In this document: piece after piece, positions 10,190 to 24,014 of the stretch
Layout of the letters: the number at the start of each line of letters is the position of its first letter
Numbering within the stretch: the first letter of the stretch is position 1
The notes under the pieces: model-generated
The model's database searches: none
What the model was told of the DNA's origin: nothing
The model's input: the letters and a program-made list of their open reading frames with translations, nothing else
Position numbers and translations under genes: made by a program
From: Octopus vulgaris
Taxonomy: Eukaryota
Length of the DNA stretch: 64,000 bases
Direction of reading: 5' to 3'
Assembly (NCBI GenBank): GCA_951406725.2
Contig: OX597814.1
Location: 94,240,001 to 94,304,000 of the forward strand

Positions 10190-11945
10190 CGTGATTTAAA
10201 ATATGTATGGAGATCAAAGTTTGTTGTGTGTACATATTTAGATGTGTTCTGTATTTTTCGATGAAAACATTTTCTTTATTTAAACGTTCTCGTAAAGAAA
10301 TTGTATCTTTGCACTGGGAGAAGGGGAAAACTGTGAATTTTGGTTTGATGTTACCTGCAGATCTCTCTATGTGTTCACTTAAAGGAATTTGTCTGTATTG
10401 AAGGAACTGGATCTGCTCTTTATGTAGAGTGGTTCTCCATCTCAATGTCATACTCGTCCGTCATATATAGTGATGTCCACAAACCGAGCAGGTTATTACA
10501 TAAATTAGGTTCTCAGAGGCACAAGTAGAGTTGGTTTTAATTGTGAAATCTCTCCTTCTTTGAAAAGGAAATCCGAACCTTCAAGTAAGTTGGGGCATGT
10601 TTCACAGTTTGGGCGTCCACATTTTTTAACCGTTGGTTTCGTGGTTGTTGCGTAAAGCTTCCCATTTGTTAAAAGTCTCTTTAGCGATCTGTGTTGTCTT
10701 TTGCATTTGATGAGTTTATGCGCTTTCGGGATGTTGTTCATTTTTGGGTCTCTAATTAGTAAAGGAAGATTTTTGCCCAATAATGGTGTGTGCCTAATTG
10801 TTTCTAGGGTTGTGGATTGATATATACAGAAGTGCTTTGAGATGAGGTGTGGTGTTATATTTGGTTGTCCTTAGTATTTTTATGTCTAATTTCTTGAGAC
10901 GCTTAATTCCAATGTCTATAAGTGAGGGTGGATATTGTCTTTTAGTTACTGTTGATTTGAGGTCTTGAAGACGAAGGTCCCGAGTAGTTCTATCAGACAC
11001 TTTGTGCAAATCCTTTTTGCCAAATTAATGGGGATATTTATTTGATGTGTTTTGGGTGGCAAAGCCGAAGAGGAGATATTGTTTTTAGCTTGTTGTTTAT
11101 GATAGATGTCAGTTATAATTTGGTTGTTGTCTTTTTTATCATAATATCTAAAAATGGGAGCTGTTCTTTGTTATATTCCATTGTGAATTGAATGTTACTG
11201 TTTATATCATTTAGTATTGATTTGAATTTCATACGTTTGTCAATGGTCTCCTTCCAAATGTTAAAACAGTCATCTAGGTATCTTTTCCAGTTTTCTCTTA
11301 CGTAGTGGTGAAATGGATAACTATATTTTTGCAATGACACTTCATATATGATGTATCCAAAATAACACATTATCAGGTTCGCAAGAACAGGAGCTGCTTT
11401 TGTTCCCATCGCAACTCCGCATTGTTGACGATAGTAGGTGTCATCAAATAGAAAATTATTGTTCTGAAGTATAAATTTTAAAGATTCAATAATAATGATT
11501 TACGCGTTCCGGGAGTACTTCGGGGGTACTTTTACAACCAGAATTTGATTGCTTTTATTCCATAGTCATGTGGGATGTTGGTGTATAGATTTATAACATC
11601 GAAGGAAACCAATAATGTCTCTTCATTGATTGTTTTTGGAAGCTGCTCTAGCATGTCTAAATCGACTCTAATGAAACTTTTGATGTATTTCAGCAATGGT
11701 TTCAGTAGGATGTCTAGAAAATTACTTAGGTGGTGAGTTTCACAGGCTGGGCCAGCTATAATTGGCCTTAACTTTAACTCTTCTGGCGCTTGGGTATTTA
11801 TGTATTTGCCTGGTGATTGTTTGTAGGCTTCATTAATTTATCTTGCTCTTGTGTATTTTTTGATAGGCCGTAAAAAAGAGTACATTTATATTTGAAGTTC
11901 GAGATGTAGTCTGTTCGTTTTTTTCTGTCAGACCTTTCCCAAATG
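10190..11945 (-). mobile_element. Penelope-like retroelement (Neptune-type), RT plus GIY-YIG, decayed
   Basis: RPIIAG, AMGTKAAPVLANL, WKRYLDDCF, LPFLDI, linker CGRPNCETC, LIYVITCSVCGHHYI..T..TLRWR..LHKEQI, spread over several frames. Confidence 0.9.
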
Positions 11946-12116
11946 ACGTTTACTTTCTCAGTGACGTGTACTCACAGCCAGCCACTTATCTAGGCGCGCT
12001 TTGATGTATGAACAATGAAACACATATAGTTAAAGAATGAAAAGCATGTTGTCCTCTCATCTACTTGTTTTGAAACAAGAAAGCATCCACGTGGTCGCTA
12101 GAGTTACCACAATTTC

Positions 12117-15200: not shown

Positions 15201-16567
15201 AATTAGACAACGTAATCTGTGAACCTGGTATTAGCAACTTCGTACGCCGATGTGTGTGTATGTGTGTGTGTGTGTGTGTGTGTATGTGTGTGCATGCGCG
15301 CGCGTGTGTTACTTTGTTTATATATGTGCATGCGTGTACACGTATGTATATGTGTGCTTGCGAGGATATGTGTTACGTTGATTTTTTGATTTCACTGCAT
15401 CATTTTGCCATTTGTTGATTTCACTTGACAGACAGTAAATATTCATACGTCAAAACAGTAAAACTTGCGATAAATTAATCAGCTTACAGATGGGAAAAAA
15501 ATCAACTTCATGAAACAAAAGAAATACTTCTAAATTCCGGCTTTATACTAATATTTTATAAAACGATTATTTTGTGATGTTATGTTTAAGAAGATTAAAG
15601 AAGAGCTTTCCCAAATATTTTTTCCCGGAAATGTAGCGAAAACTTAAACGTCTAAAATGTTTAAGATAGTTGGATAGTGTACAATTTAGAGGCCGTTCAT
15701 TTCTATGCGATTAATTGTCACCATGTTATGACCATAATTATATTATCTGACATTTCGAAATGGTTATATTTTACCAATCCGAATGCGAACGCGATTTAGA
15801 GTAAGTTATTGTTTTATAATCTGAAAATTAGACTGAGGTATATTGAAATTTTTAAAAATTGCTTCGAACATAACACCCACGAAATGACTAATTTTCCCTT
15901 TTTCAGTGAAATATAAAACTTCCAATGTGTATAGTTTCAAAAGAAATAATTCCCCCCAAACTCACTCTCCTTCAATACACATCATGAAGAAATATATTTT
16001 CAATGGTAGTTCTTCGAGACCTGAACCTGTTTTCGAAGTATTATTGCTGGTACTTCATTTTGACTGTCGCACTATGAAGCTTACGAAACTCCAGAAACCA
16101 TAAAAATGCACTTTTTTCTCAAATGAAGCTAATTTATACGCCATTTAAGTTAAATTATCTCTCGGTAATCATTTAGACGTTACACTTTCTTAGTTTTCCT
16201 CCCTTACTCAGAAATACAAGAAAATTTTTACTTTGCAAGAAAAAGACAATACCATTATTTATTCATACCTTTTTTTCTATATAAGAACAATAGAAATGAA
16301 GTTTAATTGCCGTAAACTAAAATTTTTTAAATAATTCAATTGCTGATTCTATTCAACGTTTCTATTCACGTAGTCTCTATCAAACCATCCTCTAATTACA
16401 AAGTCGCATGCTTTACTGTGAAAGGAAATTAATACAATTAAATATTCGACAAATTCATAAATTATTAATGCTAGAGACTTTCATCCCGTCGCTCTCATAA
16501 TACGCCCAACACCTGCCATCAATTTTGTACTATCCATTTTTAATTATTTACTTTCTTTTTTTTACAG

Positions 16568-16777
16568 GTATATTGGGTTGGTCCGATGTTAGGAGGTATC
16601 ATAGGTGGTTTCACTTATGAGTACACACACGATTCATCCAATCAAATCCAGCATTTCCGAAGGTCGTTTCGCCGGAAGCAGTCAAACTTGCGTCGCAGTC
16701 GAAGTGTGAACTCCAGTAACAATTCAATGTCTACTGAACTCACATTTTCGCCAACGGCTGAACAGCCACGTATTTGA
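16568..16777 (+). CDS. Terminal coding exon of a classical (AQP1/AQP4-like) aquaporin
   Basis: Polypyrimidine tract plus acceptor (tttctttttttttacAG, ending 16567). Phase-0 exon VYWVGPMLGGIIGGFTYEY is aquaporin TM6, at the conserved HW|VYWVGP intron position. The cytoplasmic tail runs to TGA 16775-16777. Confidence 0.9.
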   Translation, partial: VYWVGPMLGGIIGGFTYEYTHDSSNQIQHFRRSFRRKQSNLRRSRSVNSSNNSMSTELTFSPTAEQPRI

Positions 16778-16864
16778 CTAGATGCAGCTGAAGATGAGTG
16801 TGAGGGTCCTGAAGAAGACGAAGAAGAAGAAACAAGTCACCATGAAATGGAGAGGTTTTAGTGA
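16775..16864 (+). other. Candidate programmed stop-codon readthrough site (UGA-CUAG) and 28-aa extension
   Basis: TGA CTAG, then in-frame LDAAEDECEGPEEDEEEETSHHEMERF, then TAG TGA (16859-16864). Confidence 0.6.
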
Positions 16865-16980
16865 ACATATAAACATTATTAACGTCACAAAATGGTTGTA
16901 TCAATTGTATATATATTCTGTATGAAAAGTTACTCGGACACATCTACCGGCATAGAGCACGTGTATATATGCATACATAA

Positions 16981-17235
<255 letters not shown>

Positions 17236-17593
17236 ATACTTACGTAAATACACATATATGTATATAGCTGAAACGAAAAGACACTCGAAAATATATGCAC
17301 TGGCTATACTCATTGTACATACATAACTGCATGTATATGCCACACTTAGAAAGACATTCGTACCAGGAGTAAAAATATTTGCTTTCCAGGTTCTCTTTTC
17401 GTCGTAGCCATATTTATATTCTAATATATTGTTGTTTCATATATGTGAGTATCTCATAAACAGAGTATTCAACTAAAAACCATTACACAAAAAATACATC
17501 TATATCTGCAAAATATCTCATTTCTGTTATTAATACATGTATACTGAAATACACACATACCTACATAGCTACATACATACATACGTACATTTA

Positions 17594-17639
<46 letters not shown>

Positions 17640-18819
17640 CATTCATACATACATACACACATGCATACATACATATAGAAAATACGCAGACAGAGAGATA
17701 GATAGATAGATAGATAGATATATACACACTCACATAGATATACACATATTGAGAATTTAAATATTGTTAATATAACCTGTTTCTATTCATACAGCATTGC
17801 TTCAATTGATTTGGAGAGGAAGATGTGAAAGATCTATTTCCTGTATATTGTAGCAGAAAATATAGGAATGAGAACTAACTGCATCTTGCGCATTTTTGCA
17901 AAAAAATATTTTAATGCAAAATACGTAGATATGTTAACCGGAAATCTCTCTAAATTACTTTACATTACTAAGGTGAACGGTGTTTCATTAACTTTATGAC
18001 TTCTATGTATATTCGGTCTGTGAAACAAGTTCGCAGCACATGGTCCTAGCTTACGAATGCAATCCTTTTTTGCAAAATTTAATTCGATTATATATTTGAG
18101 AGAGGATATGATATGACAAATTTCAATTATCTCTCCTCATTTTCTCTTCTCCCCCCTCCACGCTCAATCTGAAATTCTGGGCAAATTTGCTTTGTTAAAA
18201 GAAGCAAATGAGATGATTCGTTTATATATGCTTGTGCAAGCATCGTCATGTGAAAGTATATATTCCCGACAACCGGACCCCTACCGTGATCTCAATTTCC
18301 CCATGCTATCCAACGTCACTAATATATTTAAGAAAGGTATCAAAGTCAAATAATTACATGTGTTGTTACCACTCCTTTAATTGTGATTCAGTAAATTTAT
18401 GTGCAAAATATGTCAGTATGATAAAATCGTCTACGCCCCAATGTATAAACAATCGAAACATCGAAACACATATGCATAAGGACATTAAGCGTAGACTGAG
18501 CCTGTATTAATTTCATTATCGTGTAACTGTATTGATTTCATTTTCATGTTGCAAAGAATTTAAATTTTAAATTAAATCGGTGTCACATAAAAACAAAACT
18601 TAAAACCAATTAAAGGTTGATTGGCTAAACGTCTGCAGGTTATATTCCAACGATTGGAACCGGTATTTATGATTTCATTGTTTCTGTTGCTTTTACAAGT
18701 TGCACATAATACAGCTATCCTAGCAGCAGTGTGTTGTACAGATATATCTAACCCTATAGATATAAGCTGTTGACTTCAATGCCTTGAACACAACTAGTAA
18801 AACTAGTGGTTCCAATTGA

Positions 18820-18867
<48 letters not shown>

Positions 18868-21800
18868 CATTATTAGTATGGTCATTGAACGATGCTGCGA
18901 GCAGATGTATCGCTATGGAATCTTATCGAGGAAAAACTTCCGGAGCACGTCTGCTGTCTTCTTCATAGCCGGGGAAAGCATAAAATCTGTAATATTTTGA
19001 TATAATTTTATCTTTCTGATTTTGTTTACATCCGATATGGATGCATATCAGATAAACTCTTCTTCATAAAATACAAAATTAACGTTAAAACCCAAAGAAC
19101 AAACAGGAATTTTGGAATATATTTAATTCCTCGGGAAGATTCACACGGTTTGTATAAAAGCTAAAAAACTATACTATTAAACACAAAAACAATACACATA
19201 CATTTTGCAAACGTCGAAAACATGCCTATCTTAATGAATAGTTGTTTTGTATAACATCTACTTTACTAATGTTGTTAGTAGCCAGAAAGTTCACAGAACA
19301 TGAGACACGTGTCAGAGAATACTTTTATGTAACAGTGATGTGTTACCAAAGGAAGCATGATTTTGTCTGAGATCTTTATCCAAAAGAAGACAAGGTGAGA
19401 GAGCTAGTATCTCCCCATTTCTAAGAATACAATTGTTTTATTCATACTTTCAAAGCAACAACACCAAAATAACCTCGGCTGTTCTATAGTGCAATATCAT
19501 CTTCAACAGTAGAAGTAGCGCTTATAGGATCTTATACATGGTTTCAAATTTGTTGACGGAGAGAGAAAGTAGATCGAACTGATGTGTCATATGCTTGACT
19601 TTAGAAGGAAGCCACAATATATGACCCACGTATCAGAAGATCATTCTACTTCCTTTGTCTTAGCACTTGGTGGTGAATGACAAAGTGCCAAGGAAGGGCT
19701 TATAACCTGGATAAAAGAAATGACAGGATAACAACAAACACATCTACAGCAGTAGCAGGCCAGAAAATCCGTTGTTCTCAAAACACTGCCGAATGAGGGT
19801 CCGGAATTAAGAAGATTACCTCATTCCCATCATAGAGTTCAACGAGGAAAGACACTTCTCTCGGACTATAAACAAAAGCACCCCACAGTCAACCTGCAGT
19901 AATGAAGAAGAGTCGGTTAATGAGCAGATAGGGAAATATATTGCCGTGAGATGTGGCAATATTAAAAAGGTAATATAAATACAAACAAAACAATGTATTC
20001 CTCAATGGAGGTCGACTAGAAAGTACGATAAGGAAACAATGTCATGTTGTCTTGAGCTTCACGATCGTTTGAGGAATAAGCTATGTTTATATATTCTTTG
20101 AAGGTAGGTTTGAAGACAGCGTGCTAATTCTAATGGCGGAAATATAGATACTCAGGTGAAAAACTGCCGGTGAAAATGGCAGCATCGGTTTATCACTACC
20201 AGGAAAATGTGTAATTTCTTTACAATATTTTCATACTGGGTGTCTTTGAACAAACAAAATGTCTTCCCACACAGATTTCAAATAGACAAACAGGTGCTGT
20301 CTTGTACGATATTATTTGTTCTCTTTTATCTATACAAGTTCATAAGGCAGTTAAGAAGGAAGTTCAACTAAACAAAGCTAATGAGAAAATAGAGTTTACA
20401 TACTCGCAAAAAGAGGAAGAAAAATGTTTTACAGTAAAAACACACTTTGAAACAAATGTTATTTATGTAAGCAATTTTGGTACTTTCGGAAACATCTACT
20501 ATAGTGACATACAATCATTTTGTCAAACAAAATAACTTCGGAAGTTTGAATGTCAGCACTAAAAATGAATATCTTGCCTCATACTTTACCAGTGCTTTCC
20601 TGCAATGAATAAACGTTAGATGCAAGCCATCTAGCTTTTAGAATAGCTGTTTGACAGCATTATATAACCAAAAGACGCGTATGTTTGATCGAAGCCATCA
20701 ATTAGGCTGAAAATAAAGTCATAGCTTTGGTGAATGAGGAACCGTGATTTCCTATAACGAATGGGGTATTTAAAACTAAGACAGGATAACGAGGCAAGCA
20801 TAACGTTTGCATCATATGCCAGCAAATTGGCTAGACTTCAAATATGAGACGAAATAATATAAAAGCAACCTCCAAAGAGAATGGAGATAACGTTGACTTT
20901 TGGTTTGTTGTGTCTGACTTTTTGTTTGACTTTTGGTTTCATGCCGAGGAAGTTTGAAACTGCGGCACATGGCAGAAAATTGAGTTATTGAACGTGTCAC
21001 TGAGATTATTTTGGCGCTTTCTGCCCAAGAGAGGTTAAGACACTGAAAAGTAAAGAACAATGCAAACAATTATAGCAACAACACATCACAGTTTCTGCTA
21101 CACATGGGATACAACCAATTGCAGTTTTGGAAAGGATAGAAAAGATCACCTGGTCTTACTCCCAAGAACCAAGTCAAGGCCAATAATCAAGAAGCCAGAA
21201 AGTCCAATCTGCCTATCATACCGAAACGCTTAACACCGGGTTCTCGAAAAGATGAAGAGCTGGAAAATTGGTTGGGGTGGTAGAGAGCTTGAGTATGGAG
21301 AATAAAAAAAGAAAAGAGGAACAAGGCAGGCAGCAAAGTTTTGGTTGCGCATATTTCAAACCCACGTTGCATTAACGTTTGTAATTCTGAACAAAAAAAA
21401 ACGATGATATGAAGCGACTGCACAGCCATTTCGGGAAACAATCCAATGCCAATTGGCAATGAGACAGCCTCTAATTATGTGAAACATTCAAAAGACTTGT
21501 TACCAATAAAATTCAGCGGATCATGTTACTGAGAAAACTATATCATCTATTCCAGTATGTTGACTGTCTTTTTTAAGAACTTCTTTCTCAAGCACTTTTG
21601 AAGGGGGCAATTTAAAGTACTATAACTATAAAAGAGAGCATAGTCGGTTTCTAGAGCTATAGAGGGATCTGCTCTGAAGGTTTCTTTCCCGTGTTCAAGT
21701 AGGTTTCTCTATATTTTGTTTCACTTGAATTATATAATGTTAATTATATGTATAAATGTATATAAGTTATTGATTTGACTATTGTATCTAATGTATGCGT

Positions 21801-21968
21801 GCAATTTTAAATATATTTAGCATATGTTAATACGGAGAAGGACGTCTTTTCCCTTCACTCCGTTTCTTTCTATATAGTTTTGTTTATATCCTAAGTTTTT
21901 GCAATACATTTGTGATTTTTTATTGTACATATGAATGAGCCCAGACGGTAAATTTACAACAATGACTT

Positions 21969-21991
21969 TAATAATAATAATGATGATAATG

Positions 21992-22078
<87 letters not shown>

Positions 22079-22250
22079 GCAACAACAGGAACAACAACAA
22101 CCATAGTATAATAATAAGGATAATAACAACAACAATAATAATAATATTAATAATAATAATAATAATGATAATAGCAACAATATTATAATAACAACAACAA
22201 CAGCAACAACAACACTAATAGTAATAATAAAAATAATAATAATAATAAAT
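21969..22250. repeat. (AAT)n/(AAC)n microsatellite
   Basis: Direct read. Confidence 0.9.
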
Positions 22251-23224
22251 AACCGGCACAAACTCATAGATGTACGGGAAGAGGATTAACCTATTACATC
22301 AATCATTAACAGCTGACTTGTGTCAATCTGAATAGGATGAAAAGCAAAGTAGCGTTTCATTTTTCAAAGTACTGGTCAAGTACTGAGATGCATGAAATCA
22401 ACTACTTCCTCCCCAAAAAATCCGACTTATGTTAAGTATTATTAATGATATTGTATACATTCGGGTAGATGTTTTGTCTTTGTTAAAAACGGTGTTTTAA
22501 GACGGTCGTATATTTGCAAAACCGCCAGGGAGTCGTATAAAATACATTGTGCGATTTCTTTTGGCTCGTTACGTTCTGAGATCCAGATACCGAAGTTAAA
22601 TGTGCCTTTAAACCCTTTCTCCAGAATTCCTCAGATAAGGACCAGTAACAAGTTAATGTTGATTTTATCAGTTGTTCTCAATCACAAACCCCGCCCCAGT
22701 ATACCAGCCTTGTACTTGTCTTAGTAAACCTTGTCCTTATTGTTACCGCTTTTATACTTATAGACACCCTTTGAGCAGAAACGATTTACTGCCACTTTTA
22801 TTGTCTTAGAATAAATTCTTTGAATATCAGCATTGGCCAATTTTCTTACGGAAGAGACAATGCATAAACGAAGTACAAGGGTCGATTCAATCCACTATAC
22901 CCATCCCTTGCACGTTTTTATTTAGTAAAAGCCAAGCTAATAAATCATAATCGTGGTCACTATATTCAGCAGTACTATAATGATTACAATTAAAATCATT
23001 ATTGGTTTTGTTTTAAACAGGGCGGTGAATAGCACAATCGGTAGAGTCACGCAGTAGTACAAACCTTGCTAAACCATACCATTAGAATCAATCTTACAGA
23101 GACGAAGATATAAGAAGCACTTAAATAGTTCGGTCGGTTTAATTGACTATACTACATTCCTTCCTCAAAAATATGTCAAAAGTACTTTAGCCTTGTGTTT
23201 ACGCCATAAATCTCTATTATAATT

Positions 23225-23630
23225 TTTTTTTTCACGTTTCAGCTCAGAGCTGCGGCCATGCTGATGCATCGCCGTTTTGCGCTACACTGTTATTACTAAG
23301 AGCCTCCTCTAATATGTGGCACTTGATGAAGAATGGAGTTTGATATAGCTACCCTCATTTGCACCTCTCGCCGTGAGGTAGGCTCATCTGGGACTCTCGA
23401 CAGGAATAGGTCCAGCTTTGATTTAAAAACCCCTACATCTACTTTGTGCAAGTTCCTCAGACTCTTTGGGAAAATATTAAAAAGCTGTGGGCCCTTGAAA
23501 CCCAGGCTGTTCAGTAACTAGTCCTGAAGCGTGATGGCATTGCTGGGATCTTTGGCACTATGCTGTATCGTCCTGTTCTGTCATTGGTGTAGCTTTCAAT
23601 GCCAAAATTGAAACATTAGGACTAATATCT
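23225..23630 (-). mobile_element. CR1-type LINE 3' fragment (related to 26128-29050)
   Basis: Minus strand NFGIESYTNDRTGR..VPKIPAMPSRFRT..LGFKGPQLFNIFPKSLRNLHKVDVGVFKSKLDLFLSRVPDEP, plus the same 3' tail. Confidence 0.85.
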
Positions 23631-23850
23631 AGCGCGTTCCTGTCAAAATGAATTCACTCCGCACAGCTGCTTGATTTGCCTATTGGCACGGTTTTATTTG
23701 AACAAAAAGCGTAGCCTACACTAACACAAAACCTAGTTACATATTTCAGGTGTCGGTACAGTAATATATGTACACACACGCATACATGTATGTATGTATG
23801 TATGTATGTATGTATGTATGTATGTATGTATGTATGTATGTATGTATGTA

Positions 23851-23934
<84 letters not shown>

Positions 23935-24014
23935 TGTATATATATATATATATTCATATATAGTGAGGGAGAGATAGAGAGAGACAGAAAGCCACAGAGA
24001 GACACAGAGAGAGA

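Follow-up and report, generated by a model that had tools for sequence, protein, structure and literature searches.

Does the stop codon of an octopus aquaporin let some ribosomes pass into a second, longer C-terminus? The question is raised by a stretch of 64,000 nucleotides of the Octopus vulgaris genome (the window; G000:C1:94240001-94304000), in which the last exon of an aquaporin gene ends in UGA-CUAG. The same stop context occurs in vertebrate aquaporin-4 (AQP4), whose readthrough isoform is AQP4ex (Loughran 2014, PMC4132726; Palazzo 2019, PMC6444679; Pati 2022, PMC9138620). Judging from its sequence, the octopus gene probably uses programmed stop-codon readthrough at UGA-CUAG to yield a minor channel isoform of 322 amino acids. 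A sequence-only reading of the window had claimed two C-terminal isoforms made in this way. The context, the stop, and a conserved in-frame extension are all present, and the two isoforms are probable.

Gene structure and identity of the channel

The gene has three exons. Exon 1 (198 codons; L001:1453-2046, at ~93.967 Mb of G000:C1) and exon 2 (27 codons; L014:1507-1587, at ~94.148 Mb) lie upstream of the window and were placed by matches to octopod proteins. The last coding exon occupies positions 16568-16774 of the window (+ strand). It has 69 codons, ending in CCA CGT ATT, and encodes helix 6 and the cytoplasmic tail to QPRI. The GT-AG introns measure 180,725 and 108,164 nt, and the 885-nt coding sequence is stretched over ~290 kb (G000:C1:93967598-94256567). 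The second of these introns closes with a polypyrimidine tract and AG acceptor (...ttttttacag; 16548-16567, + strand), evident from the sequence and from the joins in contigs of two runs (X10 and X12). Elsewhere in the window are broken ORFs resembling what we take to be a mariner/Tc1 transposase (1213-2118, + strand) and a Penelope-type reverse transcriptase with a GIY-YIG nuclease (10500-11970, - strand).

The exons match Octopus sinensis XP_029639018.1 at 198/198, 27/27, and 69/69 residues; O. bimaculoides at 195/198, 27/27, and 69/69 (three differences); and Argonauta (Argonauta hians) at 182/198, 25/27, and 62/69 (25 differences). All three of these full-length annotated octopod proteins end in QPRI. 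The public O. vulgaris model CAI9715570.1 (P0008) consists of exon 1 only (198/198), without exons 2 and 3. Literature searches found no expression data for the octopus gene.

By sequence, the octopus gene is a classical AQP4-like aquaporin. The Pfam domain PF00230 (MIP) is found on exons 1 and 2, and the NPA motifs read HLNPA and MNPAR (in P0009). In a ranking of PDB entries, the best solved-structure match is AQP4 (254–270 bits), with AQP0, AQP1, AQP2, and AQP5 at 190–213 bits. Together with the octopod protein matches, these results bear out the sequence-only reading's identification of a cephalopod aquaporin. By resemblance, the gene could conceivably also be the octopus big brain.

The octopods differ from AQP4 in the aromatic/arginine filter, where the His of helix 5 is Gln in 3/3 proteins (motif GQLFA at the end of exon 1, L001). 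Three exon-1 records that are cephalopod-like but not octopod keep the His, as do seven of eight other pattern-caught proteins; Lineus has Asn. The change from His to Gln may widen the pore. Exon 1 also has two in-frame Met codons (M1 and M11, L001:1453-1485), the second of which aligns with the starts of Priapulus and other orthologues. This pair recalls the M1/M23 leaky scanning of AQP4.

The tail defines a protostome subfamily that includes nemerteans, a chiton, bivalves, Priapulus, Strigamia, and chelicerates. Most members end in an aligned ...EDL[RK][ILV] or ...DCR[VA], and the mollusc, nemertean, and chiton orthologues terminate at the place aligned with the octopus UGA. In a quick tree (43 rows, midpoint root, without AQP0/1/2/5 or Bib rows), vertebrate AQP4 pairs with a hemichordate group (SH-aLRT 96). 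The octopus gene falls with lophotrochozoan, priapulid, and chelicerate/myriapod relatives (support 84), in a clade of protostomes separate from the deuterostome AQP4 branch. The tree also contains several protostome paralogues, other octopus paralogues among them.

A Pfam MIP search of the octopus genome gave 21 matches. One locus (L004; G000:C1:93827171-93830698, minus strand) carries exon 1 again, together with its flanking sequence, inverted and frameshifted, ~91% identical and ~138 kb upstream. Because O. sinensis has a similar protein model (P0056), this locus is probably a genuine partial duplication or a pseudogene. Four other loci (L006, L010, L012, and L030; G000:C3, minus strand, 80.59-81.24 Mb) are exons of another large octopus classical aquaporin, which the quick tree places only loosely, toward its AQP4 side. 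A paralogue pattern scan of the genome gave four matches, versus three in the reversed control. The four are the octopus last exon, the helix-6 exon of the paralogue (L030), which is probably followed by another intron, and two chance-like matches.

The stop site and its transcripts

The first stop, UGA, is located at 16775-16777 (+ strand, as are all features of this site). From the sequence, the contigs, and the ends of orthologues, this is the ancestral stop position of the protostome subfamily, here proposed to be leaky. The CUAG context follows at 16778-16781 and forms the start of an in-frame extension of 27 sense codons (16778-16858), which has an acidic middle (14 of the 27 codons encode D or E) and a conserved end, HHEMERF (16838-16858). 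A second stop, TAG, is followed directly by TGA (16859-16864). The 3' UTR begins at 16865; its first part, to 16972, is on the same contigs as the spliced exon, and an AT microsatellite comes next. The sequence-only reading had this arrangement (16775-16864) right, down to the 14 acidic codons and the double stop. The extension is indeed 28 amino acids long once the residue inserted at UGA is included, which lengthens the protein from 294 to 322 residues. Its coding-like composition is also borne out, with a GC content that is 0.45 for the coding part and 0.44 for the extension but drops to 0.33 over the following 100 nt. The preceding tail, which had been called very basic, is fairly called basic, but only moderately so, with nine K/R versus three D/E in 49 residues.

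How much of this could arise by chance was estimated from 283,796 nt of the octopus genome (both strands of the window and of 24 loci, with the site itself among them). In this background, CTAG follows 7 of 5,099 TGA triplets. A frame of 27 open codons follows 3,188 of 15,248 stop triplets (21%), and such a frame alone therefore means little; at least 14 D/E residues occur in 4 of the 3,188. In human, UGA-CUAG is found in 23 genes, four of which have a coding signature (Loughran 2014, PMC4132726). Chance would be expected to put the motif into some tens of genes in any one genome, and the features seen in a single genome are therefore suggestive only.

Of 24 listed runs, four were examined, and two of them gave contigs in which the exon is spliced and neither the stop nor the extension is altered. 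These contigs, from X10 (organism A) and X12 (organism B), extend from 16567 to 16969 and 16972, respectively, and their loose 5' end at 16567 corresponds to the end of exon 2 (L014). None of the listed runs is recorded as RNA, but because this exon-exon join is present, the contigs represent spliced RNA. The other two runs (X17 and X20), picked for being the most divergent, yielded no contigs, an outcome that can be a false negative. Their only difference from the window is a synonymous third-position G>A at 16690 in X12; being near-identical to the window, they are uninformative on constraint, as they are on translation. Neither of the two informative runs has a sense codon at 16775, and the annotated octopod orthologues end there. 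The octopus UGA is not a sequencing error, nor is it the private nonsense allele that had been raised as a possible refutation.

The contigs also bear on two ways of bypassing the stop at the level of RNA. In the first, which the sequence-only reading had offered as an alternative route, A-to-I editing changes UGA to UGI (Trp) in part of the transcripts. The A at 16777 has a 5' G, a neighbor disfavored by ADARs. No A>G change was present at 16777 in either covering run (X10 and X12), although contigs drop rare variants and low-level editing is compatible with this result. No conspicuous duplex was evident by folding, and editing would leave CUAG unexplained. Recoding is heavy in coleoids (PMC8382921, PMC4384741), but the stop loss handled in the coleoid study is of the UAG-to-UGG type (PMC8382921), and stop-to-Trp editing is called 'non-existent' in a ranking based on squid RNA and proteomics (bioRxiv 10.64898/2025.12.15.694494). 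These results weaken the editing route, and we regard it as very unlikely.

In the second, a cryptic intron in the last exon removes UGA through an in-frame join to the AG at 16781 or 16787. The exon has 18 formal in-frame GT..AG pairs (with donors, for example, at 16596, GTATCA, and 16716, GTAACA), and one relative (L026) has an extra intron-like insert in its last exon. Such an intron is nevertheless highly improbable: no splice joint within the last exon was seen in either covering run (X10 and X12), neither AG has a polypyrimidine tract upstream, and most of these introns would remove helix 6 or the conserved tail. A direct join of exon 2 to these AGs would lead into another frame, not the conserved one.

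Selenocysteine insertion, for which the in-frame UGA is the only favorable feature, has almost no probability. No SECIS family was among the 38 Rfam matches at 16500-24000 (E up to 1), although divergent SECIS elements can escape Rfam models; all 38 are microsatellite-driven miRNA or snoRNA matches under the gathering score. In addition, UGA is the ancestral stop, and relatives carry TAA or TAG at this position, not Cys.

Conservation of the extension

Whether the extension is conserved was examined with a HMMER search of 1.84 billion representatives, in which the query was the exon read through with TGA as W. Among the 27 proteins matched, the best (P0013, from Logan) spans the whole read-through query, and its cluster mate (P0039, from ENA) is from a second species. 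A profile search (19 proteins) found no cephalopod-like read-through record beyond these two, which are the only ones among the 27 and 19 matches. Either record could have been retrieved through its pre-stop tail, without help from the extension. The pre-stop tails of both are nearest Octopus, then Argonauta. Because they lack one residue shared by both octopods, they fall outside Octopus and Argonauta, and we infer from their sequences that they come from squid or cuttlefish. What is known of the conservation of the octopus extension comes entirely from protein records of two other species.

Both records read QPRI-W-LEQRTSP...HEMERF-W. Their extensions have 24 residues with no inner W or stop, three codons fewer than in octopus, with the frame kept; neither of the two has a frameshift, which had been named as a result that would count against readthrough. 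The octopus second stop aligns with W in both. The terminal residues are identical to those of octopus at 7/7 positions in P0013 and at six in P0039, an identity run reached by none of 20,000 shuffles. The global score against the octopus extension was reached by 4 (P0013) and 11 (P0039) of 20,000 shuffles. The two records are identical to each other at 54/54 positions before the stop, 15/24 within the extension (including its first seven and last six residues), and 0/12 past the second stop.

The middle of the octopus extension is not alignable with that of the two records. Acidic residues number 7 and 8 of 24 in P0013 and P0039, and the acidic middle is thus kept in kind and not in sequence. 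The part conserved letter for letter is the terminal HEMERF and not the acidic run, which weakens the earlier suggestion that the extension serves to neutralize the basic tail.

The W after QPRI presumably represents TGA. A precedent is found in P0031, a code-4 gene call in which W stands where the DNA of L024 and L026 has TGA. In both P0013 and P0039, L-E comes directly after W, an order that agrees with CTAG without proving it. It could instead be supposed that this W is a real TGG, and that the long form is the only form in those species, with octopods having gained or kept a leaky stop. P0013 and P0039 are protein records, and TGA and TGG are indistinguishable under a call in which TGA encodes W. 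However, the stop is ancestral, with mollusc, nemertean, and chiton orthologues ending at the aligned position; L-E fits CTAG; and no full-length long protein was found in the protein searches. We give a real TGG little credence, and even with TGG in those species, the octopus extension would remain a peptide under selection that only readthrough could produce.

Another account dispenses with functional readthrough altogether. Here CUAG occurs by chance, and the last 18–21 nt are a conserved 3' UTR element, such as a protein or miRNA site, that is in frame by accident. The 21% of stop triplets followed by 27 open codons in the octopus genome make such an accident easier to envisage, and constraint at the level of RNA does occur in relatives, in that the post-stop DNA of L024 and L026 is more conserved than the codons before it (see below). 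However, the boundary of the element would have to coincide precisely with an in-frame stop in each of three lineages. The account would also have to explain a length difference of whole codons, 24–27 codons without a stop or W, and L-[DE] immediately past the stop. We consider a UTR element unlikely.

The pattern in P0013 and P0039 is probably the signature of selected readthrough. It carries the marks of readthrough conservation used by Jungreis 2016 (PMC5100048) save one, synonymous bias, which needs DNA. From these protein sequences, the cross-species match raises the case for readthrough in octopus above chance.

Relatives, AQP4ex, and a possible role

Stop contexts outside cephalopods were sampled by one scan of metagenome contigs, which yielded seven loci with the orthologous exon. 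None of the seven has TGA-CTAG; the contexts are TGA-ATA, TAG-CAT (L023, frameshifted), TGA-CGA, TAA-CAT (twice), TGA-CGC, and TAG-GTC. Four of the loci are nearest heterodont bivalves (L022, L025, and L027, as scored, and L023, by eye). These have TGA-ATA, TAA-CAT, or TAG-CAT, followed, where read, by 2–17 unrelated codons. The context in L028 is TAG-GTC.

The remaining two loci, from marine animals, share TGA-CG[AC]-CTA-CAG (L024, TGA at 655, minus strand; L026:1251, plus strand). Their post-stop peptides are identical at 14/15 residues, and the peptide is present in P0031 as well. At the DNA level, L024 and L026 are identical at 41/45 positions after the stop, 9/45 in the next stretch, and 12/18 before the stop. 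Third positions are identical in 12/15 codons after the stop versus 1/6 in the coding codons before it. The second stops differ, following after 15 and 26 codons, and the peptide is unrelated to the cephalopod extension. This post-stop element is compatible with readthrough at UGA-C, an RNA element, or an alternative acceptor.

Several further observations were made in these records. L026 has an additional GT-AG intron-like insert in its last exon (~935-1190), which is absent from octopus and L024. P0015 reads W-R, with unrelated sequence thereafter. P0023, a single record (Logan) of a Haliotis-like paralogue, reads ...DDPEV-W-L-G..., an acidic stretch, and then another W, which would fit TGA-CTA-G in a paralogous subfamily of gastropods. 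Pattern scans gave 0 matches in viral contigs and 2 in prokaryote genomes, both of them in unrelated bacterial frames.

Beyond the shared UGA-CUAG, the octopus gene resembles AQP4 in the length class of its extension (28 residues in AQP4, 24–27 in cephalopods). In both, conservation is concentrated near the new C-terminus and the 3' side has no conserved structure. No stable structure 3' of the stop was found by folding in octopus (z +0.73 and +0.68) or in L024 and L026 (z −0.57 and −1.38). In four human genes, CUAG is needed for readthrough, its deletion being abolishing, and 12 nt on the 3' side suffice (PMC4132726). The lack of structure in octopus fits this CUAG mechanism, because AQP4 needs none either.

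The differences from AQP4 are equally clear. The last sense codon is ATT in octopus, as opposed to an invariant GUA in AQP4; the short form ends in QPRI and not SSV; and the octopus extension lacks the RxxS site of AQP4ex. The stop DNA of mouse AQP4 reads TGA CTA GAG G (Palazzo 2019, PMC6444679), and conservation of the AQP4 extension has been published as far as cartilaginous fishes (Loughran 2014, PMC4132726). In an ungapped comparison with nine residues of human AQP4ex (327–335; Pati 2022, PMC9138620), octopus matched at 0/9, P0039 at 2/9 (p 0.23), and P0013 at 5/9 (shuffle p 0.0013, for one of three comparisons and noticed post hoc). Human R-Q-D-S is R-N-D-S in P0013, and the Ser falls at stop+11 in each; octopus and P0039 lack the site.

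The sequence-only reading had left open whether the octopus trait is deeply conserved with AQP4ex or convergent on it. Convergence is considerably likelier than descent, because the gene is at best a putative one-to-one orthologue of AQP4, none of the seven non-cephalopod loci has CUAG, and the tails are unlike. These points weaken the claim of deep conservation, and the most likely history is an origin of the trait within cephalopods, separate from that of vertebrate AQP4ex. The likeness of P0013 to AQP4ex is a lead for descent. It would be part of an account in which AQP4-type readthrough is an old bilaterian trait with turnover of the peptide. Vertebrates and cephalopods would have kept UGA-CUAG, the L024/L026/P0031 group would have kept UGA-CG, and bivalves would have lost readthrough. 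This account draws on the L-E-x-R-T-x-x-R-x-D-S pattern of P0013, with its Ser at stop+11 as in human AQP4ex. Cephalopods possess a glial barrier, and the cephalopod long form would, on the same account, anchor the channel at this glial blood-brain barrier. We hold this old-trait account to be doubtful.

Other channels and genes provide further comparisons. OPRL1, OPRK1, MAPK10, MDH1, LDHB, and VDR have the same cis signal and proposed mechanism as the octopus gene. The octopus extension differs in lacking a peroxisomal PTS1 end, and the gene, unlike the other UGA-CUAG genes, is from a mollusc. UGA-CUA alone gives 1.5% readthrough in human cells (Loughran 2014, PMC4132726). Among UGA-CUAG genes, the 5' context changes the strength of readthrough by a factor of more than 15 (PMC12233894), and the rate in octopus may therefore be below 1%. 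Drosophila big brain, an invertebrate AQP4-related channel (PMC4539701), is similar to the octopus gene in having a predicted extension past TGA. It is listed as a readthrough candidate (bib-RA) with a predicted 41-codon extension, in the context TGA-A and not CUAG, and its Anopheles orthologue, whose stop is not orthologous, is entered there as non-readthrough (Jungreis 2016 supplement S1, PMC5100048).

For programmed readthrough, the preferred reading, the following course of events may be proposed. Most ribosomes would halt at UGA and release the 294-amino acid channel ending in QPRI. In a minority, UGA-CUAG would let a near-cognate tRNA beat eRF1, giving the 322-amino acid isoform ending in HHEMERF, which TAG TGA would close tightly. 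The residues usually inserted at UGA are Trp, Cys, or Arg. The extension would be an acidic, probably disordered linker that presents the short conserved terminal motif, and HHEMERF would most likely be a new binding or sorting signal in place of the free QPRI end. The QPRI and ERF ends might also be read as PDZ-type ends. Because aquaporins assemble as tetramers, a small number of long subunits could be enough to position the entire tetramer, just as mammalian AQP4ex anchors mixed AQP4 assemblies at endfeet (Palazzo 2019, PMC6444679). By analogy, we infer readthrough at octopus ribosomes, a binding partner, and a role in localization.

Full-text searches, from which subscription journals were largely missing, turned up no paper that describes stop-codon readthrough of an aquaporin from cephalopods or other molluscs. 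In the published accounts consulted, abundant readthrough is described only for Pancrustacea (Jungreis 2016, PMC5100048, in whose main text the string 'mollus' is absent), and conserved AQP4 readthrough only for vertebrates (PMC4132726). The octopus gene would thus represent a known mechanism in a new phylum, in the same kind of channel and with a different peptide, and is probably functional.

That a mollusc has the same seven-base signal, in the same kind of channel and with an extension of the same size, points either to repeated evolution or to more than 500 million years of descent. Repeated evolution would cover vertebrates, cephalopods, and perhaps a third group and fly bib. Either origin makes it testable what the AQP4ex extension is for, and cephalopods, with their large brains and closed circulation, are a natural comparison. 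The gene also hints at an unsurveyed layer of readthrough in the diversification of the cephalopod proteome, which has so far been studied through A-to-I editing.
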